From: an uncultured bacterium
Lineage (GTDB): Bacteria; Patescibacteriota; Minisyncoccia; Phycocordibacterales; PALSA-1337
DNA length: 46,346 nt
Direction: 5' to 3'
NCBI GenBank assembly: GCA_903864905.1
Contig: CAIPHR010000054.1
Coordinates: 1-46,346, forward strand
A model generated the notes under the pieces. That model searched no databases. It was not told where the DNA came from and was given only the letters and a program-made list of their open reading frames with translations. The translations under genes and the position numbers were made by a program. Of the stretch, positions 704-22,597 are shown in pieces. Within the stretch, counting starts at the first letter, position 1. Each line of letters opens with the position of its first letter.

Positions 704-774
704 GCGGGTATGGTTTAGTGGTAGAATGCGACCTTCCCAAGGTTGAGACGCGAGTTCGATTCTCGCTACCCGCA
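704..774 (+). tRNA. tRNA-Gly(CCC)
   Basis: Cloverleaf: GCGGGTA/TACCCGC acceptor stem, CGACC-TTCCCAA-GGTTG anticodon arm, GCGAG-TTCGATT-CTCGC T arm; CCA not encoded. Confidence 0.95.
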
Positions 775-947
775 CTATGATTCACGAAGACGCCTGAACG
801 GCGTCTGAGTGAAGCATCATAGAGACGAGGTGGCGAGAATCGAACGCCGGAACGTGCGAGCTCTAGCAAGAGCGAGCCGTGAGGCGGTGCCCAAGCCGAA
901 CGAGCGGGTAGCGAGTGAGAGCTGCGGGCGATTCTCGCTACCCGCAC
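757..947 (+). repeat. 19-bp direct repeat of the tRNA-Gly 3' end (757-775, 929-947) flanking a palindrome-rich mini-module
   Basis: cgattctcgctacccgcac occurs twice; inverted tRNA fragments at 833-845 and 904-915. Confidence 0.85.
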
Positions 948-2395
948 AGAGTTGTAAAATCAGCGTTTTTAGGTGTTTTTATCATCAGGTCGAAGGGACT
1001 TTTAAGGCTAGCTGTATAGATATTTTTCTCTTTGATCGAAAGGTTCCAACAGAGATTTTCTAGTACTTTACGTTTCTTGAAGTCATCACCGTCCAGAAAC
1101 TCATTTTTGGCTCTGCTTGCTTCTAGAAATACTTTTTTGGTCGGTTCCAACACGTTGACTGGTTGCTTGGATTTTGTTTCTTGGATCTGCTTTTCGATTG
1201 ATATTCTCTCGTTATGCAAAGCAAGAATTTTGGCATCGTATAAGTCCTTGGTAATTTGTTGAGCGAGGAAAGTATCGAGTAGCAGAGATTCTTTCGTCTT
1301 GAGCGAGTTTAGCTGGGTTTGGAGAGTGTTTAATATTTGCTCACTGTAAATATTATTGGAATGAGACTCCGACTTGGCAGCTTTGTACATCAATTCGATT
1401 TTTCTTTCTGAAAAAGCAATGCCATTCAGAATATCTGACACCTTGTCATACAGATAGATTTCTCTCATATAGCTTTTATGTTCATTGCAGCCTTCTCTAT
1501 TGCCGGTGCAGTAATAGTAATGATGGCCTTTCTTCAAAGAAGCCGTTAGAGCACAGCCGCAATTCTCGCACTTCATGAATCCACGGAGAGGGAAGAATAG
1601 TCGTTGTGGTCGTGGGTGTGATCGCCCGTTCATAACGTCTTGGGCTTTCTCGAATGTTTCCTTTGAGATGAGAGGTTGATGGATGCCTTGATAATATTTA
1701 CCTTCTCGCTCCATGATTCCTGTGTAAAAAATAGATGAGAGAATTCTTTGAATATAGCTTTTGTTTGCTATCTTGCCAGTTCTAGTTCTAAATCCTTCAT
1801 TGTAGAGAGTGTCCGATATTTCCTTGAAGCCATGAGAGCCGGTAAGATATAGCTCGAAAGCTCTTGGTATGTATTTTGCACGGGCAGGATCAATGATGAG
1901 AGTTCTGGTAGCCTTGTCGTTCAAGAATCCGAGAGGAGCACGATTTGGCCAACCTCCACGAGATAATTTTTCACGATTTCCTCTTTTGACATCGACGCTG
2001 AGATTCCTGCTGTATTGATTGGCCATGCCGAACTTTATAGCCATCAGCATGACATCATCACCTTGTTTGTGTACGCCTTCTGAAGTCTGTATTTCTTTAA
2101 TGACACCATTTTGAAGCATATCTATGATGAGTCCTCCGTCAATGAAGTTTCTGGCGAGACGGTCTAACTTCCAACAGACTATGCGATCAGCTTTACCTGA
2201 TTGAATAGTCTTCATCATCTCGTTGAATAATGGACGACCTGCTGATTTGGCGGACATGCTTTCCTTGAATGTTTTGGTGATGAGTAGGTTATGTTTTTCA
2301 GCAAGCGAAAGGGCTTCTCTTTCTTGTGAATCCAATGACAGAAGTTGTCTGTCTTCTGCTTCAGTAGATTTTCTGTAGTATGCGATGTATTTCAT
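938..2395 (-). CDS. Large serine recombinase (integrase 1), C-terminus truncated by the att junction
   Basis: Resolvase motifs YYRKS, ESMSAKSAGRPLF, KLDRLARN; recombinase domain; Zn-ribbon CENCG...YYYC...C; coiled coil; TAG stop lies in the tRNA-derived repeat. Confidence 0.93.
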   Translation of the reverse strand: MKYIAYYRKSTEAEDRQLLSLDSQEREALSLAEKHNLLITKTFKESMSAKSAGRPLFNEMMKTIQSGKADRIVCWKLDRLARNFIDGGLIIDMLQNGVIKEIQTSEGVHKQGDDVMLMAIKFGMANQYSRNLSVDVKRGNREKLSRGGWPNRAPLGFLNDKATRTLIIDPARAKYIPRAFELYLTGSHGFKEISDTLYNEGFRTRTGKIANKSYIQRILSSIFYTGIMEREGKYYQGIHQPLISKETFEKAQDVMNGRSHPRPQRLFFPLRGFMKCENCGCALTASLKKGHHYYYCTGNREGCNEHKSYMREIYLYDKVSDILNGIAFSERKIELMYKAAKSESHSNNIYSEQILNTLQTQLNSLKTKESLLLDTFLAQQITKDLYDAKILALHNERISIEKQIQETKSKQPVNVLEPTKKVFLEASRAKNEFLDGDDFKKRKVLENLCWNLSIKEKNIYTASLKSPFDLMIKTPKNADFTTLCG

Positions 2396-2406
2396 GATTG
2401 GTAATT

Positions 2407-3450
2407 TTATACCTGCTTCAGTGAATAATCAATCAAATCGAATCGAGAAGTTGGCGAAGGGATGATTAACTGCTCGATAATGTTCTGACTTGTCGGTGAT
2501 TTTTCAATGGAAATACCTATTCCAACTTGTTTCAAATCTTTTTTGTATCTATAAATCGTGCTCCTGTTCAAGCCTCCTCGCAGAAACATATTTTTCATCT
2601 CCTCATTGAAGTAATAATCCTTGTAGAATTGGTAAAGTCTGGTTGCTTTGGTCTTGGTGAAATTTTCGAATAGGATCTGCTTGATGTTTTCATCGGTCAT
2701 CGAGTTAGCGTTCACGTAAAAGAAGACTTTTTTCTCAAGAAAGTATTTAAGGACTTCAAATATCGTGTCGTCGTCGGTGACATCTTTCAGATATACCTTT
2801 TCGAGCTTGAAGAAATCTTGCAGATAGGTCTTCTTTAGATTGACTTCGAATCTGACTATTCGATCTGCCCACGCTTGCAAACTGTCCGCTCGATCAGGTT
2901 CAAGCTTTTTATAATCATGCGCCGTGAATTCAGCACCTTTGGCGTAAAACTTCACGGTATATGCACTTCCTTTGTACATGACTGAAGTATCGTAGGTGTA
3001 TTTCTTCTTTCTCGGATAATCAATTCTTCGTAGGAAGTCCATGGCGTACGTAGATTCATTTTGATTCTTGAAAAGCCAGTTGTAGCAAACATCAAGGCGA
3101 TATATTGGCCACAGGGAATAGTGAAGAAGTTTGTAATTCATATGGGTGCATAGTTCATCGTAAAGTCGCGCTATGATGTTTGGAAGCTCATGTGGGTAGA
3201 TCATTTCAACGTTGTTTCCTTTAGCGTATTTTGGGACGGAAAATTCAATGAAGAATCCTTGGGGAACATTTGTTGATTTTATAGCAACCGTCCTGTGATA
3301 CGAACCAAGCTCTATGTTGCTACTGAAGAATTCAAATTCCACCTTTCCGGTCTTTAGATCATCCTTACGAAACCGCATAAGGTTACCTTTTAACAGCTCA
3401 ATAAGGGTGCTGTCCTCCATCGGTATTAGAAATTTAATAGTGTCTATCAT
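2407..3450 (-). CDS. Phage/plasmid replication initiation protein, gene II/X (Rep_trans-like) family
   Basis: MIDTI start, RLDVCYN, VKFYAKGAE and RFEVNLK motifs, C-terminal HTH-like RSTIYRYKKDLKQVGI. Confidence 0.75.
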   Translation of the reverse strand: MIDTIKFLIPMEDSTLIELLKGNLMRFRKDDLKTGKVEFEFFSSNIELGSYHRTVAIKSTNVPQGFFIEFSVPKYAKGNNVEMIYPHELPNIIARLYDELCTHMNYKLLHYSLWPIYRLDVCYNWLFKNQNESTYAMDFLRRIDYPRKKKYTYDTSVMYKGSAYTVKFYAKGAEFTAHDYKKLEPDRADSLQAWADRIVRFEVNLKKTYLQDFFKLEKVYLKDVTDDDTIFEVLKYFLEKKVFFYVNANSMTDENIKQILFENFTKTKATRLYQFYKDYYFNEEMKNMFLRGGLNRSTIYRYKKDLKQVGIGISIEKSPTSQNIIEQLIIPSPTSRFDLIDYSLKQV

Positions 3451-3468
3451 GGTGCATATTGCAACGTA

Positions 3469-3567
3469 CCCTAGGTGTTACTAACACCTAGGGTTAAGTC
3501 ACCATGATTAGTGTCGACCGGAAGCGTCCCGCCCGCCGCTCTAGCGGTCGGGACGGGACGCCCTTCC
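3469..3567. other. Candidate double-strand origin hairpins of element 1
   Basis: Perfect 12-bp-arm palindrome ccctaggtgtta-c-taacacctaggg (3469-3493) and GC-rich hairpin 3520-3567 directly upstream of rep. Confidence 0.5.
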
Positions 3568-3707
3568 GCAAACGCCAAAAACAAACCAGCCATTGAGTGT
3601 AAATACTCATTAGCTTGTTCTCTGGACAATTCCAAACCATCTTCCTCTTTGAAGCATTGGATTGTCCGTTCTATTAAATTCTTGCTGAAGTTTTTCGATT
3701 CTTCCAT
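3471..3707 (-). CDS. Small conserved protein upstream of rep (paralogue of 13731-13946)
   Basis: FSKNLIERTIQCFKEEDGLELSREQANEYLHSMAGLFLAFA aligns with FSQNLIQDCIKSFKEENGVDISAETAIEYLDSFARLYLTFA. Confidence 0.75.
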   Translation of the reverse strand: MEESKNFSKNLIERTIQCFKEEDGLELSREQANEYLHSMAGLFLAFAEGRPVPTARAAGGTLPVDTNHGDLTLGVSNT

Positions 3708-3969
3708 ACCTTTTTAGGTACAGAAAACAGCTTGAAACAAAACAACATAAATAACCTCATAAATAGTGAGGTATAGTTGCTTTATTATCTAGCTGGAATC
3801 GGAGATCGGCGTGCCTTACCCGTTCCACAGATCTAGAACACCACGTAAATGCTGGTGTGCGACTGTGCGAGTTTCAAGGTGCGCCTGTACTGGTTACTAT
3901 TATCCTACTTTAGAAAACGAAGTCAATATTTACGATGTGTAAAAGTTATTTCAAAATAACAAAATGTGG

Positions 3970-4284
3970 CGCCTCCGCATTCTCCACCCCTTTCGAATCA
4001 CAGGAAAGTCATGCGCGGACGCTTGAGCGAGAGTACTTGGTCAGAAAGAGTTACGGGCGTGTAACCTCCGCCCTTATGACGACTGTGGCGCGCCTTTAAC
4101 GCGCATACCAGTATGGCTTCGCGCCTTTCCCCCCAATCGCTTCGCGATAGCGGGGGCACTATCGCCATACAGATTATGCGCTAGGCGCGAACAAGACGCG
4201 CAGTGACGGGCGGAGGTACCACGCCCTTATCTGCCAAGCGTCCCGCGCATCACTTTCCCGAAAGGGGTGGAGAATGCGGAGGCG
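3970..4284. other. 315-bp foldback (candidate single-strand origin or structured RNA)
   Basis: Perfect 26-bp terminal inverted repeat (3970-3995 / 4259-4284) with nested imperfect stems. Confidence 0.75.
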
Positions 4285-4311
4285 AAAAGATTATGATATT
4301 ATAGTTTCAAT

Positions 4312-5103
4312 ATGAAAAATATATCAGAAAATAGGAATTCCTACGACGCCAGATTTGCCGACACTCTCGGTGGTGAAGAATACGACGATTTGTTAATTGC
4401 CCTTGAGTTTTATGATGAATTTCAAGCAGAGACAGGTAAGGCTCTGAAAGAATATATTCAGGCTCGTTGTTCAAACCAAAAAGAGATTCGAGTATTGGAA
4501 GCAGGTCCCGGAACTGGAATAACGACATTTCAAATATTGAAGGCTGACCCTAGAGTGTTAGTAGTCTCTGTCGACAATGAAAAAAAGATGCTTGATGCTG
4601 TCAGAAATCGTTTCGCTGAAGTATCAGAATTGAAGGGAAGGGCCGATTTCATATTATCAGACATTCTTAAATTTCTAGAGTCATGTCCTGATGAAAGATT
4701 CGACGCGTTTGCGTCGGTTTACACTTTGCATAACTTTACGACAGATTTTCGAAAGAAGGTCATTGGGTTGATTGCAAAAAAACTCAAGAAAGGAGGTATA
4801 TTCATCAATGGAGACAAATATGCCGAGGCTGAAGATCCACACAAGAAAGATCTGGCTGCAGAGATTATGAATTATGACAAGTTTGACATTGCTGCTCTTA
4901 AGGCAGAAAAGGAAGGAAATATGAAACGAGCTGAACACTTGCGCACAATAAAGAAAGAATGGATCGCACACACATGGGAAGATGAGAAGAATAAAATCAC
5001 GGCTGAGGAACAGAATGAGATATTCAACGAGCTCGGCTTTATAGATGTGAAATGGATGAGGAGATTCGACCTTGTGACGACGGTGAGTGCGATCAAGAAG
5101 TAA
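4312..5103 (+). CDS. Class I SAM-dependent methyltransferase
   Basis: VLEAGPGTG motif I; FASVYTLHN; GGIFINGD. Confidence 0.85.
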   Translation: MKNISENRNSYDARFADTLGGEEYDDLLIALEFYDEFQAETGKALKEYIQARCSNQKEIRVLEAGPGTGITTFQILKADPRVLVVSVDNEKKMLDAVRNRFAEVSELKGRADFILSDILKFLESCPDERFDAFASVYTLHNFTTDFRKKVIGLIAKKLKKGGIFINGDKYAEAEDPHKKDLAAEIMNYDKFDIAALKAEKEGNMKRAEHLRTIKKEWIAHTWEDEKNKITAEEQNEIFNELGFIDVKWMRRFDLVTTVSAIKK

Positions 5104-5172
5104 AAGTTCCGATGTTTTAATCAAAAAATCCCGTCGCTGTCGACGGGACCGGGACGATACTAGAGTAAACGA

Positions 5173-5889
5173 TCATTCCGTGATGATTCGGGCCGAGAAC
5201 AACGCTTCCATGCGCCTGCGGAAGGTAAACCGGCAAGTCACATGGTTTAGTACGTCAACGTTCCGAAGCAAGTCGATCTGATCCTTCTCGGTGAAGCGGA
5301 TCTTCTCGTCCAGAAGATAGTGGACTGTCCACTTCAGCCGGTAAGCGGGATCGTCGTTGAAGACGTCGAAATGCAGAAGCTGATCGGCCAGGTCGGCGAG
5401 ATGCTTGGCTTCATTATTGCGAGCGTATTTATCGGCGTTGATGAACCAACCGCCGCGAATTCTGACGACGTTGCAGATGCCTTTGAATAGCATGCGCCTC
5501 TGCTCGGGTGTCAGATTGTGGATCATGAATGCGGAGACGACAGCATCATAATTGTTTGATATCGCCTTGCAGACGTATTCAGTCGCATCCGTATGCATCC
5601 ATGTTATGTTCTTGGAACGGACGCGTTTGCGAGCCTCGATAATCATCCGGCGCGAGGAATCGATTGCCACAAGATGACAGTTGGGCACATGCTTCATGAT
5701 CTTCTCAGTTGTGAGCCCCGTGCCACACCCGAGTTCCAATACTTGCGGATCCTTTATTCCCCTGAGCTTGGCTGCAAGGGTGGTTGCCAGCAGTTCCTCG
5801 ATTTCGTTGTACCATGGCATCGCTTGTTCAAAGCGATCGTAGTTTTTTCCCGCAAGGGGACCTGTTTTGAAGTCAGTTTGTTTGTTCAT
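5173..5889 (-). CDS. Class I SAM-dependent methyltransferase (paralogue of the convergent neighbour)
   Basis: VLELGCGTG, AVVSAFMIHN, GGWFINADKYA; start placed at MNKQ (5889). Confidence 0.85.
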   Translation of the reverse strand: MNKQTDFKTGPLAGKNYDRFEQAMPWYNEIEELLATTLAAKLRGIKDPQVLELGCGTGLTTEKIMKHVPNCHLVAIDSSRRMIIEARKRVRSKNITWMHTDATEYVCKAISNNYDAVVSAFMIHNLTPEQRRMLFKGICNVVRIRGGWFINADKYARNNEAKHLADLADQLLHFDVFNDDPAYRLKWTVHYLLDEKIRFTEKDQIDLLRNVDVLNHVTCRFTFRRRMEALFSARIITE

Positions 5890-6048
5890 TATCAATGTTT
5901 CTCCTTCATAATGAATAATACATGGATTTATGGTTGTGTCAATAAGTGAGTTGACAAGGAAGGTCAAATCTGCTATACTATAAGGAGAATTCGGAATAGG
6001 TCCAAAATACATTAACAATCAACCATTTGGAACAATTGGAGTCAAATT

Positions 6049-6840
6049 ATGAAGAGAATTCTGTGTCTTTTGGCGTGTCTGTCTGTAATCACTCTGCGCG
6101 CCTCTGACGACGCCCACTCCGACATTGAGACCGCCAAAATGGCGCCCAGTAGCGGATTGTCAGGTTTCGTTTCGACGGGTGTCGAGTCGAAGTACATCGG
6201 CCGTATCGGGGCCATCTTCTCCGATAAGCCGATCTCGGTCAACATTGTCGAGATTGACTACAAGGACTTCTACCTTGGCACATGGAATGCTACCGGCCTT
6301 ACGCCGCGCACCTATGGCACAACCTACGCCGATGAATGGGATGCCTACGGCGGTTGGGCTCACGACTTCGGTCCTGTGAAGGTCGACTTGTCCGGGTCTT
6401 ACTTCGGTCTTGCTCAACTCGATCAGTCGAAGGATGATATGTGGATCGCTGAGCAAGAAGTCAGCTTTCCAAAGTTTCCATTCGTCCAGCCCTATGTGCG
6501 GTCCAGGTACTTCGGCTCAGTTGCCGATGCTTGGAAGCCAGGTTGGTTCGTCTTCGGCGGTGTACGCAAGAGCATTGAGTTGGGTCATGGTGCGGCAAAG
6601 CGCCCATACATGATCAATCTCGATCTCTCGACAGCGTACTCCTTCGGAGCCCTGCACGATTATCACGGCTTTGTCTACGGCCGGCTCGGTGCCAGCCTCG
6701 ACATTCCGCTTTCAAAACGCTTCACCTTCAACCCGAACATGGTTTACCAAGTTCCGGTTCCAGGCGAACGCAGTGATCCAAATGGTTTTACCGACCGCAA
6801 CGAGTTTGTGTTCGGTGCAACACTCAAATGGATCTTTTGA
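6049..6840 (+). CDS. Secreted, outer-membrane beta-barrel-like protein
   Basis: Signal peptide, alternating aromatic/Gly strands, C-terminal FGATLKWIF ending in Phe. Confidence 0.55.
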   Translation: MKRILCLLACLSVITLRASDDAHSDIETAKMAPSSGLSGFVSTGVESKYIGRIGAIFSDKPISVNIVEIDYKDFYLGTWNATGLTPRTYGTTYADEWDAYGGWAHDFGPVKVDLSGSYFGLAQLDQSKDDMWIAEQEVSFPKFPFVQPYVRSRYFGSVADAWKPGWFVFGGVRKSIELGHGAAKRPYMINLDLSTAYSFGALHDYHGFVYGRLGASLDIPLSKRFTFNPNMVYQVPVPGERSDPNGFTDRNEFVFGATLKWIF

Positions 6841-6858
6841 CAGGTGTCAATTTACGCG

Positions 6859-6885
6859 AGGCGCATGAGCAATCATGCGCCTTTC
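6859..6885 (+). terminator. Intrinsic terminator
   Basis: aggcgcatga-gcaa-tcatgcgcct followed by T residues. Confidence 0.6.
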
Positions 6886-6963
6886 TGCATATATTAGTAG
6901 ATATTCTGTGCCCTTGATTTATTTCAAAAAAAATTATAAAATAGTCCCAATAATGTTCATTGG

Positions 6964-7182
6964 AATTCCTATTCTATAGTGCCTGCCGTGCAATACAAGG
7001 TATCACCTAAAGGGTCGTCGGTAGTAATGATAACCTGTTCACGCAGTTGTCGATAATGTCCGAGCTGCTATCGTTGAACGTTTACCCCCAACAAAGTCGA
7101 AAGACTTGAGCGGATAACTTCTTTAAGTGCACCGGACGCCAAGTGTATTGCAGCCTGAATCATGACCTATAGAATGGGAATT
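6964..7182 (+). ncRNA. Candidate structured ncRNA (~220 nt)
   Basis: 16-bp closing stem with one G-U pair, inner tgcaatac/gtattgca stem, GAAA-capped hairpin, TTGATT...TAAAAT promoter-like sequence upstream, no long ORF. Confidence 0.45.
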
Positions 7183-7209
7183 TTAGTGAGTGTTATTTAT
7201 TGCTATAGC

Positions 7210-7237
7210 GGTTCCAACTTCGTACCACAACCCGCAC
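7210..7237 (+). repeat. att-like junction site G1
   Basis: ggttccaacttcgtaccacaacccgcac. Confidence 0.9.
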
Positions 7238-7338
7238 AACCCAAGGCTGATGCTGAGGCATGGCTTAATTGAGCCATGTTACACATTTGGTAGGAGTCAA
7301 ATGTCGATTCTCGGATTCATCAAATACGAGATATGTTC

Positions 7339-9504: not shown

Positions 9505-9560
9505 AAGCGGATATTACCCCTTACTTCAATTCATTACAAGAACATGAATGTGTAATCAAA

Positions 9561-10616: not shown

Positions 10617-10710
10617 AATATATTCATATAAATGTTATATATCCGATTGTATACGATTATATCCGAAAAGTCAAGCTTACTAGATTAATGCCATTAGTGA
10701 TGCTAATGCA

Positions 10711-10737
10711 GTTCCAACTTCGTACCACAACCCGCAC
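10711..10737 (+). repeat. att-like junction site G2
   Basis: gttccaacttcgtaccacaacccgcac. Confidence 0.9.
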
Positions 10738-10819
10738 AATTATATATGGCGTTCAGTTATACGAATATGTCGTACAACTGAGAGTTGTAAATTCATCGAT
10801 TTTGTGCAATAATTTGGAC

Positions 10820-12899: not shown

Positions 12900-12986
12900 G
12901 AATTTAATTAGTTATGGTTGATAATGAGATTAAAGTTGGTGACATTTTACTCCTCGAAAATGTTTTGCACAAATTTTGTAATATTT

Positions 12987-13724: not shown

Positions 13725-13730
13725 AGTGAG

Positions 13731-13946
13731 TTACTTACAACTATGAGGGGATATCAAGTCAGGCGAAGCGCCGCCCGGAGCTTCGCATACCGGGACGGCG
13801 CCTTCTATCCTCGCAAAGGTTAAATACAACCGAGCGAATGAGTCCAGATATTCAATTGCCGTTTCAGCAGAAATGTCGACCCCATTTTCCTCTTTGAAGC
13901 TTTTGATGCAGTCTTGTATTAAGTTTTGCGAAAAAGTTAATGGCAT
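13731..13946 (-). CDS. Small conserved protein upstream of rep
   Basis: Homologous to 3471-3707 and in the same position. Confidence 0.75.
   Translation of the reverse strand: MPLTFSQNLIQDCIKSFKEENGVDISAETAIEYLDSFARLYLTFARIEGAVPVCEAPGGASPDLISPHSCK
13751..13805 (-). other. Candidate double-strand origin of element 2
   Basis: ACTTGATAT on the minus strand (13751-13759) matches the phiX174/pC194-type CTTGATA nick motif; adjacent GC hairpin 13765-13805. Confidence 0.6.
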
Positions 13947-14013
13947 GAAAAAACCCGATATTGGGTCGGGTTCATTATCATTCCTTGGCGTTACGGGATT
14001 GTACGGGTACGGC

Positions 14014-14928: not shown

Positions 14929-14977
14929 ACCAATAGTTTACCATTATCAAAACAGCAGTAAAAACGAGTGAAAGTGG

Positions 14978-15273
14978 CGCCACCCACCCACTGCCTTTTC
15001 CGTGCAGGAATGCGTGAGTCGCGACTAACCTTTGTGGCTAAAGAATGACTATGGAAGCGGTGATGTCGCTTCAAAGAGAGCCTGTGGCGCGCCTTTCGCA
15101 CACATCCGTATGTTTCCGCGCATTCCCCCAGTTGCTAGTCGCAACAGGGGTGCGCTCTCAACATACCGATGTGTGCGAGGCGCGAATTACACTCCGTGAG
15201 TGAAGCGACACACACCGCTTCCTCTGCGCGACATCACGCATACCTGCACTCCAAAGTCAGTCGGAGGGTGGCG
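14978..15273. other. 296-bp foldback homologous to 3970-4284
   Basis: Nested inverted repeats; shares gtggcgcc...ggcgaa ends and internal ctgtggcgcgccttt. Confidence 0.75.
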
Positions 15274-15336
15274 AAGAATCTCTGTTGCACATCGCCCACA
15301 TAAATCCGTTTTTCTGTTATAATAATAAGTACTTTT

Positions 15337-16113
15337 ATGAAACCACACCTTCTCTTGGTTCACTCATTTCCAACTAACAGTATATTGCTTCGTGGATTAG
15401 AAGAATTTCTAGCTGATTATTTTACCGTCCACTTTATAGACCTCCCGGGATTTCATAAAGATATTCCGCCCCTTCAGGGTTCCATAACCTTAAGGAAGTT
15501 CTCGAATTATTTTGATCAAAAAGTCCAGGAATTAGATGCGGATGAATATGTGGTCGGTGGTGTCTCATTTGGTTTTCTGGTTATTAATAACGCGAAACTA
15601 GACAAGAGATGCAAAGCCATTTTGGCTATGGAGCCGTTCATAAATAACCAGTGTCTAAATCTCTCTCTATGGACAAAAGAAAAATACATGGCGATCACCC
15701 AGATCTTGGGACTAATCCATACTCTTGGTCTGGAAACGCATATTTGGAAGTCCGACTGGTTCAATAAATATTTACAGGAAGAGTCAGATTATCCCAAGGA
15801 AAGAGTCGATACCATAATAAATCATATCGATCCCAGAACATTCTTCGCGGTCACAAAGCTTTTATTGAGTTACAAAGACAATCCTAAGTTTCACAAACTA
15901 CCGTACTTTTTGGTAGGAAATTTCGCCGATAAAACTATTAACTTCGACAAAGTTGTGGAGATTTTTATTAAGAACCTACATGAATTGCATATCACATCTG
16001 AACCGATTGATCATTACCCAAAAGATCTGACAAAGAATTATTTTAAGACAAGAATACCGAATGAGCACATAGGTCGAATGCTAGCCTGTATTAAGGGAGT
16101 TGAAACGGGATAG
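15337..16113 (+). CDS. Alpha/beta hydrolase fold protein
   Basis: LLLVHSF, IDLPGF, nucleophile elbow GVSFG. Confidence 0.8.
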   Translation: MKPHLLLVHSFPTNSILLRGLEEFLADYFTVHFIDLPGFHKDIPPLQGSITLRKFSNYFDQKVQELDADEYVVGGVSFGFLVINNAKLDKRCKAILAMEPFINNQCLNLSLWTKEKYMAITQILGLIHTLGLETHIWKSDWFNKYLQEESDYPKERVDTIINHIDPRTFFAVTKLLLSYKDNPKFHKLPYFLVGNFADKTINFDKVVEIFIKNLHELHITSEPIDHYPKDLTKNYFKTRIPNEHIGRMLACIKGVETG

Positions 16114-16214
16114 GTAAATACTATTCGGATGTCATGCAAAGATCTAGGGTTGTTGAGATTTATGACGATGTTATAATATGCATGAATTATTATTCACTTA
16201 TAATTTGTAAATAT

Positions 16215-16640
16215 ATGCACAATGAGCAAATACCAAAACAAGCGGATAAATATGAGAAAAAAGTAGAGGTAGTATCAGAAGGAGGAGGAGAAAAAGGACC
16301 AGAGGTTCAGAATAAATCTTTTTTTGTTAATGGCTGTGAGCTAAATGCAAAGGTCTCTGTTGATCCTAATAATAATATTTCTTTCGCGGAAGATATTGAC
16401 ATGGGAGGGGATGTTCCAAACTTTCTAAGTTCTTTTATGGATGAATTCGACTTGAGAGTGTTATTTGATGCTGGAATACTTAAGAAAGGCAATCCTGCGA
16501 GTTGTAAAAGTAAATATGGTCTGGGTGGAGATGGTTATAGCGGCTACATACTTATTAATAAGGATGAGATTAATGATGCAGTTAAAAGTGGAAAGTTAAA
16601 GATTAGGCTGGATGAGGATGGTAACATAGAGGTTTTGTAA
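16215..16640 (+). CDS. Hypothetical protein
   Basis: Open frame after TGTTATAAT; start uncertain. Confidence 0.45.
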   Translation: MHNEQIPKQADKYEKKVEVVSEGGGEKGPEVQNKSFFVNGCELNAKVSVDPNNNISFAEDIDMGGDVPNFLSSFMDEFDLRVLFDAGILKKGNPASCKSKYGLGGDGYSGYILINKDEINDAVKSGKLKIRLDEDGNIEVL

Positions 16641-16758
16641 AACAAAAATATTTCATACTATGAAGTGTGGTCTTCATAAAGTCGCACCTGCCATTAGTAT
16701 GTACCAATGGAGTCGAGACAGGACAATATTCAGTTTCGTTATATGATAGAATAATTCC

Positions 16759-17094
16759 ATGGTTATATTTACAATAATTCCTGCTTGGATATGGATAGCT
16801 ATATCAGCAATCTTTTTCGCCGTTGGAGAATTTATATCAAAAAAATTTGCCATTAGTCCTGGATGGACGCTGTTTTTGACATTTATTATTGTAGATATAA
16901 TCAGCGCCTCAGCTTGGATACCGGCAATTGTTCAAAAAAATCAACTATCAATAACAGGTGTTGTTTGGTCAATTGTTTCTCTGATAGCTACAGTATTGAT
17001 CGGGATACTTGTTTTCAATGAGAAATTTACATTGACTCAATCAATTGGCTTAGCGATAGGGTTTGTATCAGTCATTCTGTTGAGCATGAAATAG
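16759..17094 (+). CDS. SMR/EamA-like small four-TM transporter
   Basis: Four hydrophobic helices, GILVFNEK motif. Confidence 0.75.
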   Translation: MVIFTIIPAWIWIAISAIFFAVGEFISKKFAISPGWTLFLTFIIVDIISASAWIPAIVQKNQLSITGVVWSIVSLIATVLIGILVFNEKFTLTQSIGLAIGFVSVILLSMK

Positions 17095-17162
17095 GAATGG
17101 CTGATATAGCGATATTTGGCCATTATTCCTCATTTTGCTATCACTTGGTCATGTTCAATGCC

Positions 17163-17195
17163 AAAAAGGTTCCAACATTGTCCCAGACGGCGCAC
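17163..17195 (+). repeat. att-like junction site, variant type shared with the tRNA-Leu array
   Basis: aaaaaggttccaacattgtcccagacggcgcac; reverse complement of the sites at 34074, 36129 and 38108. Confidence 0.85.
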
Positions 17196-17282
17196 ATTAA
17201 AATTCGAGCTAATTCGGAATAGCGCACTAATTATATTCGTCGTCAATATTAATTTATTATTTTGGTGTGAGAAAATTGGAGC

Positions 17283-18116
17283 ATGAATAATCACGAAACA
17301 AAATCAATTGCATTATTTCAATCTCATGAGGTCAGGAGGACATGGCATAACGAGCGATGGTATTTTGTTGTGGAAGATGTTGTACTGGTTCTTACTGGTA
17401 GTCATAATGTGAAGGATTATATTACGAAGATGAAGGAACGTGATCCATTACTCAATCAAGGGTACGGACAATTTGTCAGTACCCTTCGTGTAGAGACGAG
17501 AGGTGGTCCACAAAAGATGAATTGTGCCGATGTACAAGGAATCTTACGTATTATCCAATCCATTCCATCTCCAAATGCTGAACCATTTAAACTCTGGCTT
17601 GCCCAGGTTGGTAGGGAGAGAATTGACGAGATTCGAGACCCTGAACTCGCTGTAAATCGTGCCAAGGCTATCTATGAGAAAAAGGGATACCCAAAAGATT
17701 GGATTGATAAAAGACTACGAGGTATCAATGTTCGTAATACTCTAACAGATGAATGGAAAGCTCGAGGGCTTAAGGAAGGAAAGGAGTTTGCTATTTTAAC
17801 GGATGAGATCTACAAAGGCACATTTGATTTTACAGCGCAGGAATACAAGAAGCACAAGTCGCTTTCAAAGGATAACAATCTTCGTGATCATATGGAAGAC
17901 TTGGAACTAATTCTAACTATGCTTGGAGAAGCCACAACTACGAGGCTAACCAAGGAAAGAGATTCTGACGAGTTCAGGAAGATGCACAAAGATGCCAAGG
18001 AAGGCGGTGAGGTTGCTGGTAAGACAAGATTTGATATAGAAGGCAGGATTGGGAAGAAGATAGTTAGTAAGAAGAATTTTCTTCCGAAGAATGGTGAAAA
18101 CAGCCTTATTGGGTGA
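17283..18116 (+). CDS. Bro-N domain (phage antirepressor-like) protein
   Basis: VRRTW..ERWYFVVEDVV, RIIQSIPSPNAEPFKLWLA, NLRDHM. Confidence 0.88.
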   Translation: MNNHETKSIALFQSHEVRRTWHNERWYFVVEDVVLVLTGSHNVKDYITKMKERDPLLNQGYGQFVSTLRVETRGGPQKMNCADVQGILRIIQSIPSPNAEPFKLWLAQVGRERIDEIRDPELAVNRAKAIYEKKGYPKDWIDKRLRGINVRNTLTDEWKARGLKEGKEFAILTDEIYKGTFDFTAQEYKKHKSLSKDNNLRDHMEDLELILTMLGEATTTRLTKERDSDEFRKMHKDAKEGGEVAGKTRFDIEGRIGKKIVSKKNFLPKNGENSLIG

Positions 18117-18122
18117 CGTTCT

Positions 18123-18165
18123 CGCGCATCACATTCCCGAAAGGGATGGAGAATGCGGAGGCGAA
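18123..18165 (+). repeat. Remnant right arm of the element-1-type foldback
   Basis: cgcgcatcacattcccgaaagggatggagaatgcggaggcgaa vs 4244-4286, 2 mismatches. Confidence 0.85.
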
Positions 18166-18209
18166 GAAAATCCCCCTTTTTTATCTAAAACGTGGTATAG
18201 TTTTGATAT

Positions 18210-19220
18210 ATGAAAAATACTCAAAAAGGTTTCGTCGTACCCTTAATTATTGCGGTGATAGTGATACTCGCAATCGGTGGTGGATTATATTATCAATCAC
18301 ATAAAAAATCAGTCGGTAGTGTTGTTATTAGTAATGTACCAGCGCCAACTGATAACTCATCATATACATATCCAACACCGACTAGGTATCAAGCTACAGG
18401 CGCAAGTGCGTCATGGCCACTATACACGAATGACCAATACGGGTTTCATGTAAAATATCCTGATAAAAATTGGTCAATAGCATCAAGTCCAAATAGAGTT
18501 TCGTTCACAAAAGATGGTTCTGGTTCTTTTATAGTTAATGCGCAGATTGAGCCTATCGATGCGATGATAGCAACTACCAAAAACAGCATTACAGGATCCT
18601 GTGTAGTCGATAGTGGACTAGTCGCGATTAATGAATTCCAGGCAAAAAAGATGACGTGTCAGGTCCGTTACTTTGATGCTAATTCGTCTGGCGACCAGAG
18701 GACATTCCTCTTTATTGAAAAGGGCGGCGTTTCATATGAGATTTCCTTTAGTTTAGGCACAGGACGAAACAAAAATGATACTACTTTAGAATCCAGTTAT
18801 ATCGAAATGGTTAGCACTTTTGGGTTTAATACGATAAAGGCTGCTCCTTTATCGTCATATTCAGATCCAAAGTATAAATACTCTTTTAAGTATCCGTCTA
18901 CATGGATTACTCATACCGGAGGAAATCAGCTATCATTAGAGTCTAGAGAAGGTGCCGATGGTATCGGAGATCGTCTAGATATTGTAGTTATTGGAAATTC
19001 CACATTTGAGGCAACACGACAATTCCAGGGCAGTCAGATAAGTAATTGTACGCCACAGAAAGTATATTTTATTAACAAAATACTAGGAACAAAATGTGAT
19101 TTCCTAGCAAAGGAGACCTATTTCTTTGAGAAAAATGGAAATCTTTACTATCTCAGTTTGGTACGAATAGTTAGTCCGAGGAGTGTTTTTGACGGTATTC
19201 TTAATAGTTTCAATCTTTAA
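18210..19220 (+). CDS. Membrane-anchored secreted protein with two PsbP-like domains
   Basis: Pilin-like KGF leader plus TM; Y.N..YGF.VKYP..W and Y.D.KY.YSFKYP.TW repeats. Confidence 0.65.
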   Translation: MKNTQKGFVVPLIIAVIVILAIGGGLYYQSHKKSVGSVVISNVPAPTDNSSYTYPTPTRYQATGASASWPLYTNDQYGFHVKYPDKNWSIASSPNRVSFTKDGSGSFIVNAQIEPIDAMIATTKNSITGSCVVDSGLVAINEFQAKKMTCQVRYFDANSSGDQRTFLFIEKGGVSYEISFSLGTGRNKNDTTLESSYIEMVSTFGFNTIKAAPLSSYSDPKYKYSFKYPSTWITHTGGNQLSLESREGADGIGDRLDIVVIGNSTFEATRQFQGSQISNCTPQKVYFINKILGTKCDFLAKETYFFEKNGNLYYLSLVRIVSPRSVFDGILNSFNL

Positions 19221-19311
19221 GGAAATTAGCATGGTATTGCAATCGAATATTATACATATGTATGTTTGTGGAGCGTGATATTAAAGCGGGGAGATAAATC
19301 TAATCAATCTT

Positions 19312-19650
19312 ATGAAGAAAAAATACTGGTTACGAGGAGGGATTATTGGATTTCTGATTCCGGTCATTATTATTGTTATCGTTACAGTGAGAAGTCTTAT
19401 AGTTACAGGTTATGTGCCATTTACCTTAGGAACACCGATGTGGGAACAAAATATCCTAAATATTGTTAGAACATTGTTTCACCTCCACACATTAATGTAC
19501 GGATCGATGCTTGGAACACAAACTACAGAATTAGGCGCAAAAATACTTGTCGCAATGTGGGTAATAATATTTATTGCTCCTATCCTGCTTGGATCTTTGT
19601 TGGGTTGGCTTTATCCAAAAGTAAAAAATATCTGCATGGTACCGCAATAA
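19312..19650 (+). CDS. Small membrane protein
   Basis: Two TM segments, YWLRGG...GSLLGWLY. Confidence 0.6.
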   Translation: MKKKYWLRGGIIGFLIPVIIIVIVTVRSLIVTGYVPFTLGTPMWEQNILNIVRTLFHLHTLMYGSMLGTQTTELGAKILVAMWVIIFIAPILLGSLLGWLYPKVKNICMVPQ

Positions 19651-19683
19651 AATCGGATTAGTTATTATTCAGCGTAATGGCGT

Positions 19684-19757
19684 TTCCAACTTCGTACCAC
19701 AACCCGCACTACTTCGCAATTTGTCTAAAAAGACAAATTGCTTCGAAGTGCAGGCAC
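19684..19757 (+). repeat. att-like site G4 plus REP-like hairpin
   Basis: 74 bp identical to 21654-21727. Confidence 0.9.
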
Positions 19758-19822
19758 TCTGCAAATCACAAATATCATTGAAATAGATCGCGTAGAAGGG
19801 CGGGTTTTGATACAATCCAAGT

Positions 19823-20071
19823 ATGTCCCACTATGTATATATATTAAAATGTTCAGATGCCTCATTCTATGTCGGCTCGTCAGACAATCTAAAGAATAGG
19901 ATCAAGTACCATGATAGAGGTCTGGTCACTTCTACACATAATCGTCGGCCAGTTAAGCTTGTTTGGTACTGTTGTTTTGAAAATAAGACTAAAGCTTTGC
20001 AATTTGAGAAATATCTTAAGAAAGGATCGGGTTTCGCATTTAGCAGGAAGAGTGAACCGTACCCTATTTAG
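19823..20071 (+). CDS. Small GIY-YIG nuclease, extreme C-terminus replaced by an IS end
   Basis: YVYIL...FYVG...RIKYH...ALQFEKYLKKGSG. Confidence 0.85.
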   Translation: MSHYVYILKCSDASFYVGSSDNLKNRIKYHDRGLVTSTHNRRPVKLVWYCCFENKTKALQFEKYLKKGSGFAFSRKSEPYPI

Positions 20072-20304
20072 TAGACACTTTGTGTTCCCGCCCTTCGGGC
20101 TAAAAGATGATTTCTGTATTCGACAGGAGTCATCTTTTTTCTTTCCCACTGATTTCTTTCGTAGTTGTAGTATCGCATATATTCTGTAATTACCAAACGC
20201 AATTCCTCGAAGGTTTTGCAGAACTTGTAATCAAGCTCGTCTTTGAGATGTCCGAACAAGGATTCAATTGGAGCATTGTCGATGCAACTTCCTTTGCCGG
20301 ACAT
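20053..20304 (-). pseudogene. IS3-family transposase C-terminal remnant with right inverted repeat
   Basis: GSCIDNAPIESLFGHLKDE...YYN.ER...TPVEYR; IR tgaaccgtaccctatttagtagacac at 20053-20078. Confidence 0.88.
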
Positions 20305-20418
20305 TGATTGGATTTATAACAAAATTAGAAGCCAAAAGTAGGTTGGTACTATAAAATGAATTTGGGGGTATACATATTGGTACTTTAGAAAATTCTAAAT
20401 GTGCGCTAAAATGAAAGT

Positions 20419-21324
20419 ATGGAAAAACCTGACGAATTCTTATTCGACCGTAAATCTGAATCAACTCCTTTTGACCAAGTCGTAGAATTGAGAGAAGAAA
20501 TGATAGATATTGCCAAGGAACAATTGGAGGTAATTGAACCTGCGTTATGTGACATTCTTTCTAAAATCATAGAGGAGAAACCAGATTATGTGATTTTCCT
20601 AGATAAGGGGGCTCGACTATTTGGGACACCTTTTAGACAGTACTTATCAAGTCTGCATCTGGATAAAAATCCAAAGATAGGATTTTATAATGATGACGCC
20701 GTAAAAGGAGCTTTTCTCAAAAATGAACCTCTGAAAGAAGTTGTCAATAGAGATTTCTCTCAATACAAAGGAAAGAAAGTTTTCTTTATTGACGAAACTT
20801 TTTCGAGTGGCAAAGGAGCCTTAGCCCTAAGATCGATTTTTGATATTGCAGACATTAATGGGAAGTATTTTTCTCTTTCCCAAGATTCAAGGAAGCCTGA
20901 ATTAGAACAAGGAGATAATTTCTACAATATTACTCGTGAAGAATATGACGAACAAATGGCAGTAATGCACAAGGATGAACGTTTTAAGATATATGGAAAC
21001 AAAATTGACATTCTCTTTTCCAAAGGAGCTTCGGAGCTATATGTGATAGATGATCAAAATTTGCCCGCAAACTCCCTATATCATCGAACTCTCCCTAGGT
21101 ATCAATCTTTGCCTAGTTCGGCTGAGAAGGAAGTTTATGATTATTCAAAAAACAGTGGAGAAGCTCCTTCTCCTAGAAAATACACAGAGTTGCCCGAAGG
21201 AATGACTTGGCGACAATATGATGATCAAGTTCGTCAAATAAATTTTGAAACTATTAAAAAATTAAAGGGGATGATTTATAAGACTTTGCTAAAAATTAAA
21301 CTTAGTCGAGATGTTTCGATTTAG
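20419..21324 (+). CDS. Hypothetical protein with PRTase-like motif
   Basis: VIFLDKGAR and VFFIDETFSSGKG resemble a PRPP-binding loop. Confidence 0.55.
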   Translation: MEKPDEFLFDRKSESTPFDQVVELREEMIDIAKEQLEVIEPALCDILSKIIEEKPDYVIFLDKGARLFGTPFRQYLSSLHLDKNPKIGFYNDDAVKGAFLKNEPLKEVVNRDFSQYKGKKVFFIDETFSSGKGALALRSIFDIADINGKYFSLSQDSRKPELEQGDNFYNITREEYDEQMAVMHKDERFKIYGNKIDILFSKGASELYVIDDQNLPANSLYHRTLPRYQSLPSSAEKEVYDYSKNSGEAPSPRKYTELPEGMTWRQYDDQVRQINFETIKKLKGMIYKTLLKIKLSRDVSI

Positions 21325-21368
21325 AATGAATCTGGTCTTTTGTTTCTTTTCAAGTTATACTTTTTGCC

Positions 21369-21632
21369 ATGAAACCAGACGAGCCAAAGCTAGCATTTGA
21401 ACTTCCTCCTAAACCAAAGGTAGGTTTGTATGTTGATGATAGTAATTTATACAAGCGAGGAAAAGCCGCTGGTTGGATGACTGATTACAAGAAGCTTTAC
21501 AAATGGGTTGCGCAACTCAATACGGTAATTCATGCACGTATATATATGGGTAGGCCAAAATATGAACCTGCTAAATCTATCAATGAAGCATTGGCAAAAT
21601 ATTTCACCAAGATGTGGATAATGGTCAAATAG
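21369..21632 (+). pseudogene. Truncated NYN (PIN-like) domain protein
   Basis: VGLYVDDSNLY...DYKKLY; ends at the att arm after only 87 aa. Confidence 0.65.
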
Positions 21633-21651
21633 CCGTATTTAACGCAAGAAA

Positions 21652-21727
21652 GGTTCCAACTTCGTACCACAACCCGCACTACTTCGCAATTTGTCTAAAA
21701 AGACAAATTGCTTCGAAGTGCAGGCAC
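21652..21727 (+). repeat. att-like site G5 plus REP-like hairpin
   Basis: ggttccaacttcgtaccacaacccgcac followed by tacttcgcaatttgtctaaaaagacaaattgcttcgaagtgcaggcac. Confidence 0.9.
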
Positions 21728-21804
21728 AATGATTTGCATTGAGACCAAAAGGTTACAAATTGTCACCAGTTGAAAGTGTGGTGATTTTGTGCAATAATTC
21801 GGAC

Positions 21805-22092
21805 ATGTCAATAGCGGAAATACAAAAGAAAATACATCCGGTTCTCAAGTCATATGGCGTCACCTATGCGGGTATTTTTGGTTCGGTTTCTCGCGGTGAG
21901 GATCGTCCCGATAGTGATGTTGATATCCTAGTTAAGCTCGGTAAACCGATGGGAATGTTTTCCTATATGAAATTGATCGGGGCTATTGAAGGTCTCTTGG
22001 GGCGTAAAGTTGACATGGTTACTGAGCAAAGCTTGAGCAAATTTGTTAAGCCGTATGTTATGCCAGAATTAAAGACTATTTATGAAGGATGA
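21805..22092 (+). CDS. MNT antitoxin (copy 2)
   Basis: Differs from copy 1 by 2 residues. Confidence 0.9.
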   Translation: MSIAEIQKKIHPVLKSYGVTYAGIFGSVSRGEDRPDSDVDILVKLGKPMGMFSYMKLIGAIEGLLGRKVDMVTEQSLSKFVKPYVMPELKTIYEG

Positions 22093-22405
22093 GAAAGTCT
22101 ACATAGAATAGATGTTGGATTCGGTCTCGAAGATCGAAGCCTTTACTCCTGGCATGAAGAAGGAAGATTTCATGAAAGATTCGAAAACGCAAAGTGCCGT
22201 TATCATGCAGTTAACTGTGATAGGTGAATTGGTCAAGAAGATTTCTCCGAAGACAAAAGAGTCGAGTGATATACCATGGAAAGAGATAGCTGGGTTTAGA
22301 GATCGAGCGATTCATCACTATTTTGGAATGGATCTGAATGTGATCTGGGATACCGTGGTATTAGATGTGCCAGTTTTGAAGATCGCCCTCAAAAAATTGT
22401 TATGA
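22082..22405 (+). pseudogene. HEPN/DUF86 toxin copy 2 with nonsense mutation
   Basis: CAG in copy 1 is TAG at 22109-22111 (codon 10). Confidence 0.8.
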
Positions 22406-22566
22406 AGCGTAGATCTAGGGAAGTCGTTTTGAGTTTCAGGGGCGGCCCCACCTGTCGAAGGTGAGAAGTCATTCTATAGCTCGATCAATAAAGCTATTGC
22501 GCGTGGCGATAATGTAGATGCGCTCAAAGATATCATCTATATGCTAAAGTATTCTATGCCAAAAAA

Positions 22567-22587
22567 GGTTCCAACTTCGTATCACAA
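22567..22587 (+). repeat. Degenerate terminal att-like site G6
   Basis: ggttccaacttcgtatcacaa; ACCCGCAC core lost. Confidence 0.75.
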
Positions 22588-22597
22588 ACATTAATAC

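Follow-up and report, generated by a model that had tools for sequence, protein, structure and literature searches.

Two tRNA-anchored arrays of small gene cassettes and large serine recombinase elements in an uncultured member of the Patescibacteria

We analyzed a 46,346-nucleotide (nt) stretch of DNA from an uncultured bacterium (GTDB lineage Bacteria; Patescibacteriota; Minisyncoccia; Phycocordibacterales; PALSA-1337; NCBI GenBank assembly GCA_903864905.1, contig CAIPHR010000054.1). This stretch, here called the window, makes up one entire contig (46 kb) of a genome from lake-water populations that totals 1.04 Mb in 95 contigs and is 97% complete. It holds 11 copies of a site of about 45 nt, seven after tRNA-Gly(ccc) on the plus strand and four after tRNA-Leu(taa) on the minus strand. 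The sites divide the DNA into units. Two of these, A and D, each encode one large serine recombinase (LSR) adjoining a rolling-circle Rep protein, and the nine others carry cargo only. A sequence-only reading of the left part, made without database searches, had described a cassette array built at tRNA-Gly by serine integrases and resembling an integron without IntI or attC. The explanation that we favor, with a probability of about 0.68, is that LSR elements accrete at tRNA 3' ends and that LSR-less cassettes are moved with them in trans as passengers. The left array consists of the following features, with protein domains assigned by Pfam.

704-775, plus strand: tRNA-Gly(ccc), the left-array anchor (ARAGORN; Rfam tRNA, 68.3 bits)
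776-947, plus strand: spacer of 172 nt, closing in a pseudo-tRNA-Gly 3' end (916-947)
948-7237, plus strand: unit A, autonomous, ending in a G-type site (7194-7237)
938-2395, minus strand: unit A LSR, with its stop codon (938-940) within the tRNA-end copy
2407-3450, minus strand: unit A Rep, a rolling-circle protein of the G2P/Phage_CRI type
4312-5103, plus strand, and 5173-6018, minus strand: unit A S-adenosylmethionine (SAM) methyltransferases, accompanied by open reading frames (ORFs) without assigned function
7238-10737, plus strand: unit B, cargo only, ending in a site with the AGTTCCAAC variant (10694-10737)
7339-9504, minus strand: unit B AEP-TOTE primase with superfamily 2 (SF2) helicase
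9561-10616, minus strand: unit B Fic protein
10738-11451, plus strand: unit C, cargo only, an MNT nucleotidyltransferase with HepT, ending in site 11408-11451
11452-17195, plus strand: unit D, autonomous, ending in an L2-type site (17152-17195); its cargo is an alpha/beta hydrolase, an SMR-like protein and ORFs without assigned function
11415-12899, minus strand: unit D LSR
12987-13724, minus strand: unit D Rep
17196-19709, plus strand: unit E, cargo only (Bro-N, a PsbP-like protein and a 112-aa ORF), ending in a site with the GTTTCCAAC variant (19666-19709)
19710-21679, plus strand: unit F, cargo only (GIY-YIG, a 301-aa ORF of no assigned function and a weak NYN fragment), ending in site 21636-21679
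21680-22597, plus strand: unit H, cargo only, a second MNT+HepT pair, ending in the degenerate terminal site (22551-22597)
7194-7240, 10694-10740, 11408-11454, 17152-17198, 19666-19712, 21636-21682 and 22551-22597, plus strand: the copies of the left-array repeat family (repeat search)

All seven co-oriented sites of the earlier reading exist, as a repeat family spanning 7194 to 22597. Its site positions were borne out as well, apart from the fourth, where the GGTTCC start lies at 17168 and not at 17163. The Pfam scan, which covered 50 ORFs across the window, agreed with its two LSRs, helicase, Fic, two MNT+HepT pairs, Bro-N, PsbP-like and GIY-YIG assignments; the NYN match was a weak fragment, and the label "PRTase-like" for 20419-21324 had no Pfam support. 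None of the 50 ORFs has a tyrosine integrase domain, in line with the stated absence of IntI. That reading had not noticed the minus-strand sites, the Rep beside each LSR, the tRNA copy at 930-947, the differing tails at 17168 and 22567, or the LSR frames that cross junctions.

Both LSRs match PF00239 (Resolvase), PF07508 (Recombinase) and PF13408 (Zn_ribbon_recom), and R8 and the catalytic S10 are invariant in an alignment of eight LSR homologues; the three domains and the catalytic serine that mark an LSR are thus present. The reading frames of both end across a junction, and that of unit D reads through the site of unit C (11408-11451; stop at 11415-11417). The final 18 nt of the spacer (930-947) are an exact copy of tRNA-Gly positions 758 to 775, and it is this copy, not the real tRNA-Gly, that the first LSR element adjoins. 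The spacer also includes an antisense T-arm-like stretch, and another genome (G018, locus L020, 5602-5760) keeps it with an extra 37-nt GC-rich hairpin inside. An old att duplication and a decoy site are candidate origins of this second tRNA-Gly 3' end.

The units share several sequences. The MNT+HepT pairs of units C and H are 90% identical across 300 nt, and a 48-nt hairpin module opens both unit F and unit H. In unit A, a perfect 26-nt inverted repeat (3970-3995 and 4259-4284) brackets about 263 nt and has a relative in unit E at 18138-18163 (4241-4286 and 18120-18165 are 93% identical); a miniature inverted-repeat element and a shared terminator are both conceivable.

The right array is arranged in the same way, in the opposite orientation.

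39725-39809, minus strand: tRNA-Leu(taa), anchor of the second array (ARAGORN and Rfam)
38108-39724, minus strand: unit R1, with ORFs of no assigned function at 38736-39125 and 38157-38720 (both minus strand), ending in an L2-type site (38108-38148)
36129-38107, minus strand: unit R2, a 170-aa ORF of no assigned function and a methyltransferase (36207-37184, plus strand), ending in site 36129-36169
34074-36128, minus strand: unit R3, ORFs without assigned function and an NYN-like fragment (35393-35527), ending in site 34074-34116
32991-34073, minus strand: unit R4, a Gp49/HigB-like ORF paired with a helix-turn-helix (HigA-like) ORF (Pfam), ending in site 32991-33033
32865-32959, minus strand: remnant past the last site, the 3' end of a cassette gene (sequence comparison)
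33018, 34101, 36154 and 38133, minus strand: the sites of the array, which spans 32991-38148 (pattern and repeat search)

The NYN-like fragment of R3 is 90% identical to positions 21369 to 21503 of unit F. The 95-nt remnant matches at 97% a sequence just upstream of the site in the tRNA-Leu unit of one genome (G025), and it closes a cassette ORF at tRNA-Gly(ccc) in another (G089). Unit R1 opens with a 104-nt module, F, of which a 100% copy also lies past the site of R1 itself. Module F (about 100 nt; 39621-39724 and 38004-38107) contains two hairpins and a stretch like the variable arm and T-arm of tRNA-Leu. It follows tRNA-Leu(taa) and several sites, is found on contigs C7, C43 and C52 of the same genome, and in part also follows tRNA-Arg(gcg), tRNA-Ile(gat) and tRNA-Arg(tcg). 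Because an F-like piece in genome G004 is an insertion of about 80 nt between direct repeats of 9 to 10 nt, F may be a small mobile repeat. A second module of about 28 nt (..TGATCTGTACCCCATAAAGTGGAC..; 36102-36130, 37923-37951, 33886-33914 and, inverted, 39548-39573) stands directly after tRNA 3' ends and sites, including tRNA-Arg(cct) on contigs C56 and C85 and tRNA-Leu(taa) in 8 of 27 genomes of the genus; it may be the end of another element.

The pattern GGTTCCAAC-N(10-20)-GCAC has eight matches in the window against 0.01 expected, and none of 100 shuffles reached eight. Four of the eight lie on the minus strand in the orientation of tRNA-Leu(taa), and the contig therefore has two mirror arrays. 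The octamer ACCCGCAC occurs seven times (0.30 expected), always on the plus strand: once at the tRNA-Gly 3' end (768-775), once within 930-947 and in five sites, as the sequence-only reading had held for the core common to these sites and the tRNA. Each site has a conserved left arm (..AAAAAGGTTCCAAC..) followed by a tail that closes with GCAC, the final bases of the tRNA. The last bases of tRNA-Gly, ..CTACCCGCAC, reappear in the tails of G-type sites, which share 8 nt with that tRNA. L2-type tails share 4 nt, and the tail of the last right-array site (32991-33033) is identical to the last 14 nt of tRNA-Leu(taa). The site at 17168, which ends unit D, has the divergent L2 tail ..CCCAGACGGCGCAC. 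This tail is carried by none of the 42 tRNAs of the genome, and it is therefore element-borne. The tail of the terminal left-array site, 22567, is degenerate. Elsewhere in this genome, there was a match with one mismatch on contig C21 and a lone match, lacking the tail, on contig C5.

We aligned 44 distinct sites from 15 genomes (the window and 14 others), taking the first G of GGTTC as position 0. Information content was moderate from -20 to -9, high from -8 to +27, and close to zero at +28, directly past GCAC. Positions 0 to 13 were set by the search pattern, so that only the left shoulder, the tail and the abrupt right boundary are informative. The distance from GGTTC to the end is 23 nt for the sites and 18 nt for the T-loop of the tRNA, a shift of 5 bp; with the center placed in GCAC, GGTTCCAAC lies at about 17 to 25 and the T-loop motif GGTTCGAWT at about 12 to 20. 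Extracts of Rutherford et al. (2013; PMC3783163) place the zinc-ribbon motif of LSR sites 5 bp nearer to the center in attB (11 to 19) than in attP (16 to 24). The site and the tRNA thus differ by the same 5-bp offset as attP and attB half-sites. The tails also vary with the anchoring tRNA. With this offset applied, over the last 13 nt of the first site after the LSR, tail and tRNA agreed at 8.5 of 13 positions (23 loci), compared with 6.8 of 13 for shuffled pairs (standard deviation, 0.28; 0 of 2,000 shuffles reached the observed value). A core, GTTCCAAC..TCGT.CCA, is conserved across the site family of the loci of LSR relatives. These features are best read as those of the right-end (P-type) half-sites of Patescibacteria integrative elements that carry an LSR and usually a rolling-circle Rep.

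The stated absence of attC agreed with folding: six of seven sites were no stabler than shuffled sequences (z, +0.46 to +0.74; the seventh, z of -2.3), and they do not form attC-like hairpins. We considered whether the sites have nothing to do with recombination, being RNA or regulatory elements such as terminators or tRNA-end mimics, or whether the arrays are mis-assembled. The sites do occupy gene boundaries, and they imitate tRNAs in the T-loop and the 3' terminus. Against a role as RNA or regulatory elements, they lack a stable fold, Rfam found no families in the window besides tRNAs, and homology between genomes breaks exactly at the sites. Mis-assembly is opposed by the length of the contigs on which independent assemblies carry such arrays (404 kb in G086, 94 kb in G117 and 876 kb in G017) and by two junctions of the window that independent Logan contigs bridge (X3 record 20, spanning 7038-7488, and X2 record 12, spanning 10344-10794). 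We regard both ideas as hardly credible.

The linkage of LSRs to tRNAs extends beyond the window. At least 561 relatives of these LSRs occur among species-representative genomes, and we analyzed the best 80 loci. In these, 57 of 86 LSR matches adjoin a tRNA 3' end (-22 to +21 nt), 20 tRNA species are used (Gln and Ser most often), and a Rep gene lies beside most LSRs. The sites show the same linkage. Wherever more than 3 kb of sequence was available upstream of a group of sites, a tRNA in the same orientation lay there (8 of 8 contigs from metagenomes; 11 of 11 long loci of the genus), and the other 18 metagenome and 5 genus groups end at the contig or locus edge within 2.8 kb. The earlier proposals of a tRNA-anchored array tied to LSRs, and of a motif bound to tRNAs, thus stood. 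IMG/VR holds no close relatives of the LSRs (best matches partial, 22 to 35% identity), and nothing therefore marks these elements as catalogued viruses.

The genome itself encodes at least 12 LSR homologues in about 1 Mb. At least ten of them are outside the window, on contigs C82, C41, C7, C6, C65, C93, C91, C13, C63 and C85; several are at contig ends or adjoin tRNA-Gln(ctg), tRNA-Leu(gag) or tRNA-Leu(tag), and those on C41, C7 and C6 adjoin tRNA 3' ends. LSR elements are probably the cause of much of the fragmentation of this assembly.

A single element in genome G031 shows the layout in its simplest form: tRNA-Leu(taa), the 3' end of the LSR gene, Rep, one L2 site after 4.2 kb, and then the usual flank. 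Its LSR is 96% identical to that of unit D, and the left 2.5 kb of unit D is 88% identical to this element. From this layout, the site is the right arm of the element, and the exchange occurs at or beside GCAC. Comparison of filled with differently filled sites places the crossover only to within these last bases. For complete elements we also considered, and rejected, exchange within the core of the site, beside GGTTCCAAC. Under that scheme the right junction would keep the 3' end of the tRNA itself, yet the site downstream of tRNA-Leu(taa) carries a non-tRNA tail in at least six genomes; events between two sites may possibly use the core. Unit D and the G031 element diverge past 13945, and the interior of unit D (15169-15269) matches the start of R1 (39447-39547) over 101 nt, inverted, at 93% identity. 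On these comparisons the cargo portion of LSR elements appears mosaic.

We propose the following mechanism. The LSR would recombine the attP of the element with the 3' end of a tRNA gene, exchanging strands at or next to GCAC. Insertion would leave the tRNA intact, with the LSR gene adjoining it and the right arm joined to the former downstream DNA. Repeated insertion at one tRNA end would push older material outward and yield a co-oriented array. Small cargo-only cassettes, which keep a P-type arm and have no recombinase, would travel as passengers. If an LSR element situated between them and the tRNA used a more distal P-arm junction as attR, its excision could carry the intervening cassettes along, and a later excision at the element's own arm would leave them at a new tRNA. 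As proposed, this requires known LSR chemistry and a tolerance of variable right half-sites, and it would account for the exact boundaries, for arrays without an LSR, and for the position of LSR elements on the tRNA side of cassettes. One part of the sequence-only reading, that each junction stays attP-like, did not hold. Both arms of an element are present only where 11424-11451 is followed by the LSR-side arm of unit D; the other junctions are attR-like, because there the right arm of the element is joined to unrelated sequence.

Such arrays are not peculiar to this genome and recur across related ultra-small bacteria. The site word was found in 16 of 92 other genomes of the genus and in 15 of 300 further genomes drawn from across the class, with no control matches in either set; four of the latter 15 have two or three co-oriented copies on one contig. 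In G086, nine co-oriented sites follow tRNA-Gln(ctg) on the 404-kb contig. The cargo consists mostly of single ORFs (HD, ASCH, GDSL-like, racemase, SET, methyltransferase and START-like). Within the 19 kb examined, tblastn gave no match to an LSR or Rep, nor to a remnant of either, and the only LSR homologue of the genome is about 335 kb from the array. In G117, on the 94-kb contig, an LSR+Rep element is followed by 16 sites over 13.6 kb, with cassettes of 227 to 995 bp, again mostly of one ORF; tblastn detected no LSR or Rep remnant in the 15 cassettes after the LSR element. The anchor in G117 is a 23-nt fragment like a tRNA 3' end, with no whole tRNA. One 6.2-kb unit of the G117 array (L167/L168, C1; 14798-20998 oriented) carries AsnB (asparagine synthase) and a RarA/MgsA ATPase, and represents either chromosomal genes captured between sites or an array split by rearrangement. 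Further arrays were found at loci L097, L100, L117, L129 and L157.

These arrays bear on an alternative that the sequence-only reading had itself raised, namely, that the units are only decayed elements. On that account each cargo-only unit is a former complete LSR element minus its recombinase and Rep, and nothing is mobilized in trans. This holds for some units: the metagenome units L187, L197 and L208 retain only the last 46 to 57 or so LSR codons beside the tRNA, together with a site, and are plain deletion derivatives. The degenerate site 22567 and the gene fragment beyond the last right-array site also speak for decay, as does a 265-nt internal deletion in the G090 copy of R4 (see below). 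It does not extend to the arrays of 9 to 16 small cassettes, in which the nine-site locus of G086 and the 15 cassettes of G117 lack any LSR or Rep remnant. Moreover, the left ends of the units in G086, G117 and the window are unlike the LSR-side arm, each deletion would have to begin exactly at the junction base, and the single-ORF cassettes measure 227 to 600 bp compared with 4.2 to 6.3 kb for complete elements. We therefore consider decay quite unlikely as the whole explanation.

Another possibility is that the Rep protein (G2P/HUH type) nicks the sites and copies site-to-site segments in the manner of IS91/ISCR or Helitron transposons, with the LSR integrating complete elements only. A Rep gene does accompany most LSRs, and one-sided, co-oriented sites resemble the origin and terminus ends of rolling-circle transposons. 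We judge it very improbable, given that the sites form no hairpins (z of about +0.5 in six of seven folds), that the arrays without an LSR lack Rep too, and that the geometry of the sites and the co-variation of tail and tRNA suit LSR half-sites.

Comparison of units at the same tRNAs, a check suggested by the earlier reading, showed that downstream gene content differs between related genomes. Among 27 genomes of the genus, at least four unrelated classes of sequence flank tRNA-Leu(taa). The same cassette was also found in different positions. R4, the fourth unit from tRNA-Leu here, is about 98 to 100% identical to the G090 unit that immediately follows tRNA-Leu(taa), except over a divergent patch of about 90 nt and the 265-nt deletion in G090. 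The identity starts exactly at GCAC, which is preceded by a site here and by the tRNA in G090. MNT or MNT+HepT cassettes occur in the tRNA-Gly array of the window, at tRNA-Leu(tag) in G004, and at locus L193, where a 393-bp MNT(-HepT) unit lies between tRNA-Lys(ctt) and tRNA-Leu(tag); in G004 these two tRNAs are 27 nt apart. We also asked whether the flank after each site is the native flank of a tRNA. This was only partly true: recurrent left-end modules (F-like, "TGATCTGTACCCCATAAAG" and the 48-nt hairpin) stand behind tRNAs as well as behind sites in many genomes and are better read as shared cassette 5' modules.

Several observations weigh against passenger transport by LSR elements, or at least against its simplest form. 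R4 and its G090 counterpart cease to be homologous within the site, between GGTTCCAACAT and its tail, and 6 of 17 positions distinguish the two tails. Cassette and tail are therefore not strictly inherited together, an outcome that one crossover at GCAC does not predict. Around some units there are direct repeats made up of GCAC and a further 48 to 125 nt (104 nt at 100% for R1, 48 nt for F and about 110 nt in G004); the proposed mechanism has no need of them, and they may reflect the chance adjacency of like modules or gene conversion. The dyad symmetry of the reconstructed attP is weak (best value, 0.34, 5 nt left of the tail end; background, about 0.2 to 0.3), so that symmetry does not fix its center. 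According to extracts of PMC3783163, LSRs pair only attP with attB, or attL with attR when a directionality factor is present, and no such factor was identified here, the small neighboring ORFs at 3471-3707 and 13731-13946 being candidates. Since a cassette left behind gives the tRNA junction an arbitrary right half, the enzyme must accept variation in that half of its target. The runs that contain this region (X1 to X4, from one study) showed neither an excised circle nor a deletion junction, as evidence of the excision or shuffling in trans suggested by the sequence-only reading, nor an empty-site variant or alternative joint; they provide only short contigs at 2 to 5x depth, and the result does not speak for or against excision. 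Loose contig ends at 17165 and 17195 correspond to the homologous site at 34101. Finally, decay shapes the arrays too, as the degenerate site 22567 and the remnant 32865-32959 at their outer ends illustrate.

Some of these observations would fit a different route, in which the LSR joins a cassette circle directly to a tRNA end or to another P-arm site, comparable to attC x attI and attC x attC recombination, with no need for a neighboring LSR element. Arrays without a nearby LSR (G086 and the right array of the window) are consistent with it. The reassortment of tail and cassette body in R4 and G090 could reflect exchange between sites in the conserved core, and so could the occurrence of one upstream module with four or more tail types. 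The excerpts of PMC3783163 indicate that published LSRs do not perform such site pairing, the site core has no dyad symmetry by eye, and no circles were seen in the 2 to 5x contigs. We consider this route unlikely and continue to favor accretion by LSR elements with passenger cassettes, in which the crossover position, the use of alternative junctions and the present-day mobility of LSR-less cassettes are what we infer.

About 10 kb of core genes separate the two arrays (glutaredoxin, PAP2, enolase, L31 and release factor), beginning with glutaredoxin at 22642-22878, right after the terminal site of the left array. One further tRNA gene was found.

39965-40038, minus strand: tRNA-Cys (ARAGORN)

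The core-gene parts have repeats of their own. A repeat of about 54 nt (40456-40509 and 43799-43852, inverted, 94% identical, with a further copy at 30812-30844) lies near infB, an aminotransferase gene and rpmE, and has no relation to the cassette sites. Two 56-nt direct repeats (42999-43054 and 43103-43158; 93% identical, 104 nt apart), each with a small palindrome, sit upstream of a class-V aminotransferase gene (43202-44524) and may be regulatory.

To our knowledge, integrons are the only well-understood systems that stack single-gene cassettes, and they need a tyrosine recombinase and folded single-strand sites. The full-text literature searched contained no description of LSR-tagged cassette arrays at tRNAs, nor a treatment of tRNA-targeting LSRs as a class. 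If our explanation is correct, it would constitute a second, mechanistically distinct route to the integron architecture, based on a serine recombinase acting on double-stranded, tRNA-anchored half-sites. It would help to explain how ultra-small, host-dependent bacteria with genomes of about 1 Mb exchange accessory and defense genes, and would provide such genomes with an exchangeable store of defense, toxin-antitoxin and accessory functions. Mimicry of the T-loop by the half-site would let one recombinase family use many tRNAs. The LSRs would also form a natural set in which attB is the T-arm and acceptor end of a tRNA and the tails track the target, useful for understanding, and possibly retargeting, LSR site choice.

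Parts of this behavior are known from other systems. In staphylococcal cassette chromosome (SCC) elements, CcrAB excises units in trans. As far as excerpts of the SCC literature describe them, LSR insertion there occurs at the 3' end of one conserved gene and gives tandem arrays with repeated junction sites, including recombinase-less pseudo-SCC units; the composite islands built by Ccr thus resemble the present arrays. Here, however, the targets are tRNA 3' ends (20 species) and not rlmH, the units are far smaller (0.23 to 6 kb) and often of one ORF, the autonomous ones have a rolling-circle Rep, each element has a single LSR in place of a CcrA/CcrB pair, and the hosts are Patescibacteria.

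Streptococcal integrative and conjugative elements (ICE) and cis-mobilizable elements (CIME) are also related in behavior: att-flanked units without a recombinase lie in tandem with an autonomous element and can be excised with it through alternative att sites. Such accretion and mobilization is the same mechanism as the one proposed here. Those systems rely on tyrosine integrases, conjugative elements and large units, whereas the present arrays combine a serine recombinase and many small cassettes with no conjugation genes.

The tycheposons of Prochlorococcus, as far as extracts of their description go (bioRxiv 10.1101/2020.12.28.424599), likewise target tRNAs, carry replication genes and cargo, displace older elements by successive integration and leave degenerate remnants. 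By the same extracts, the recombinase is of the tyrosine type in 910 of 937 tycheposons, with LSRs in a minority, and partial copies of the tRNA, about 40 nt long, form the junctions. The junction repeat here is instead an element-borne half-site with 4 to 14 nt in common with the tRNA, and long arrays of single-gene, recombinase-less cassettes are the rule, a difference from tycheposons as these extracts portray them.

Integrons are the closest in form. Both systems contain co-oriented, small, mostly single-ORF cassettes with a recombination site at the 3' end and one fixed anchor, and both carry cargo rich in toxin-antitoxin, defense and accessory genes. The cargo of the present units (toxin-antitoxin pairs, a TOTE-type primase-helicase, Fic, methyltransferases and small enzymes) is of the kind usual in accessory islands. 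In contrast to integrons, the arrays have neither a tyrosine recombinase nor hairpin sites, the anchor is a tRNA 3' end and not an attI beside an integrase gene, and the recombinase is encoded on a mobile element inside or outside the array. The likeness is one of form only, and the mobility of the cassettes is putative. Tentatively, and with somewhat less confidence than in accretion itself, we suggest that the Patescibacteria may own a serine-recombinase counterpart of the integron, in which the tRNA 3' end would serve as the acquisition site and a double-stranded P-type half-site of about 36 to 45 bp as the cassette tag, and in which the LSRs of small replicons would capture, stack, carry off and drop single-gene cassettes. 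There is a substantial chance that these arrays represent a genuine serine-recombinase analogue of the integron.

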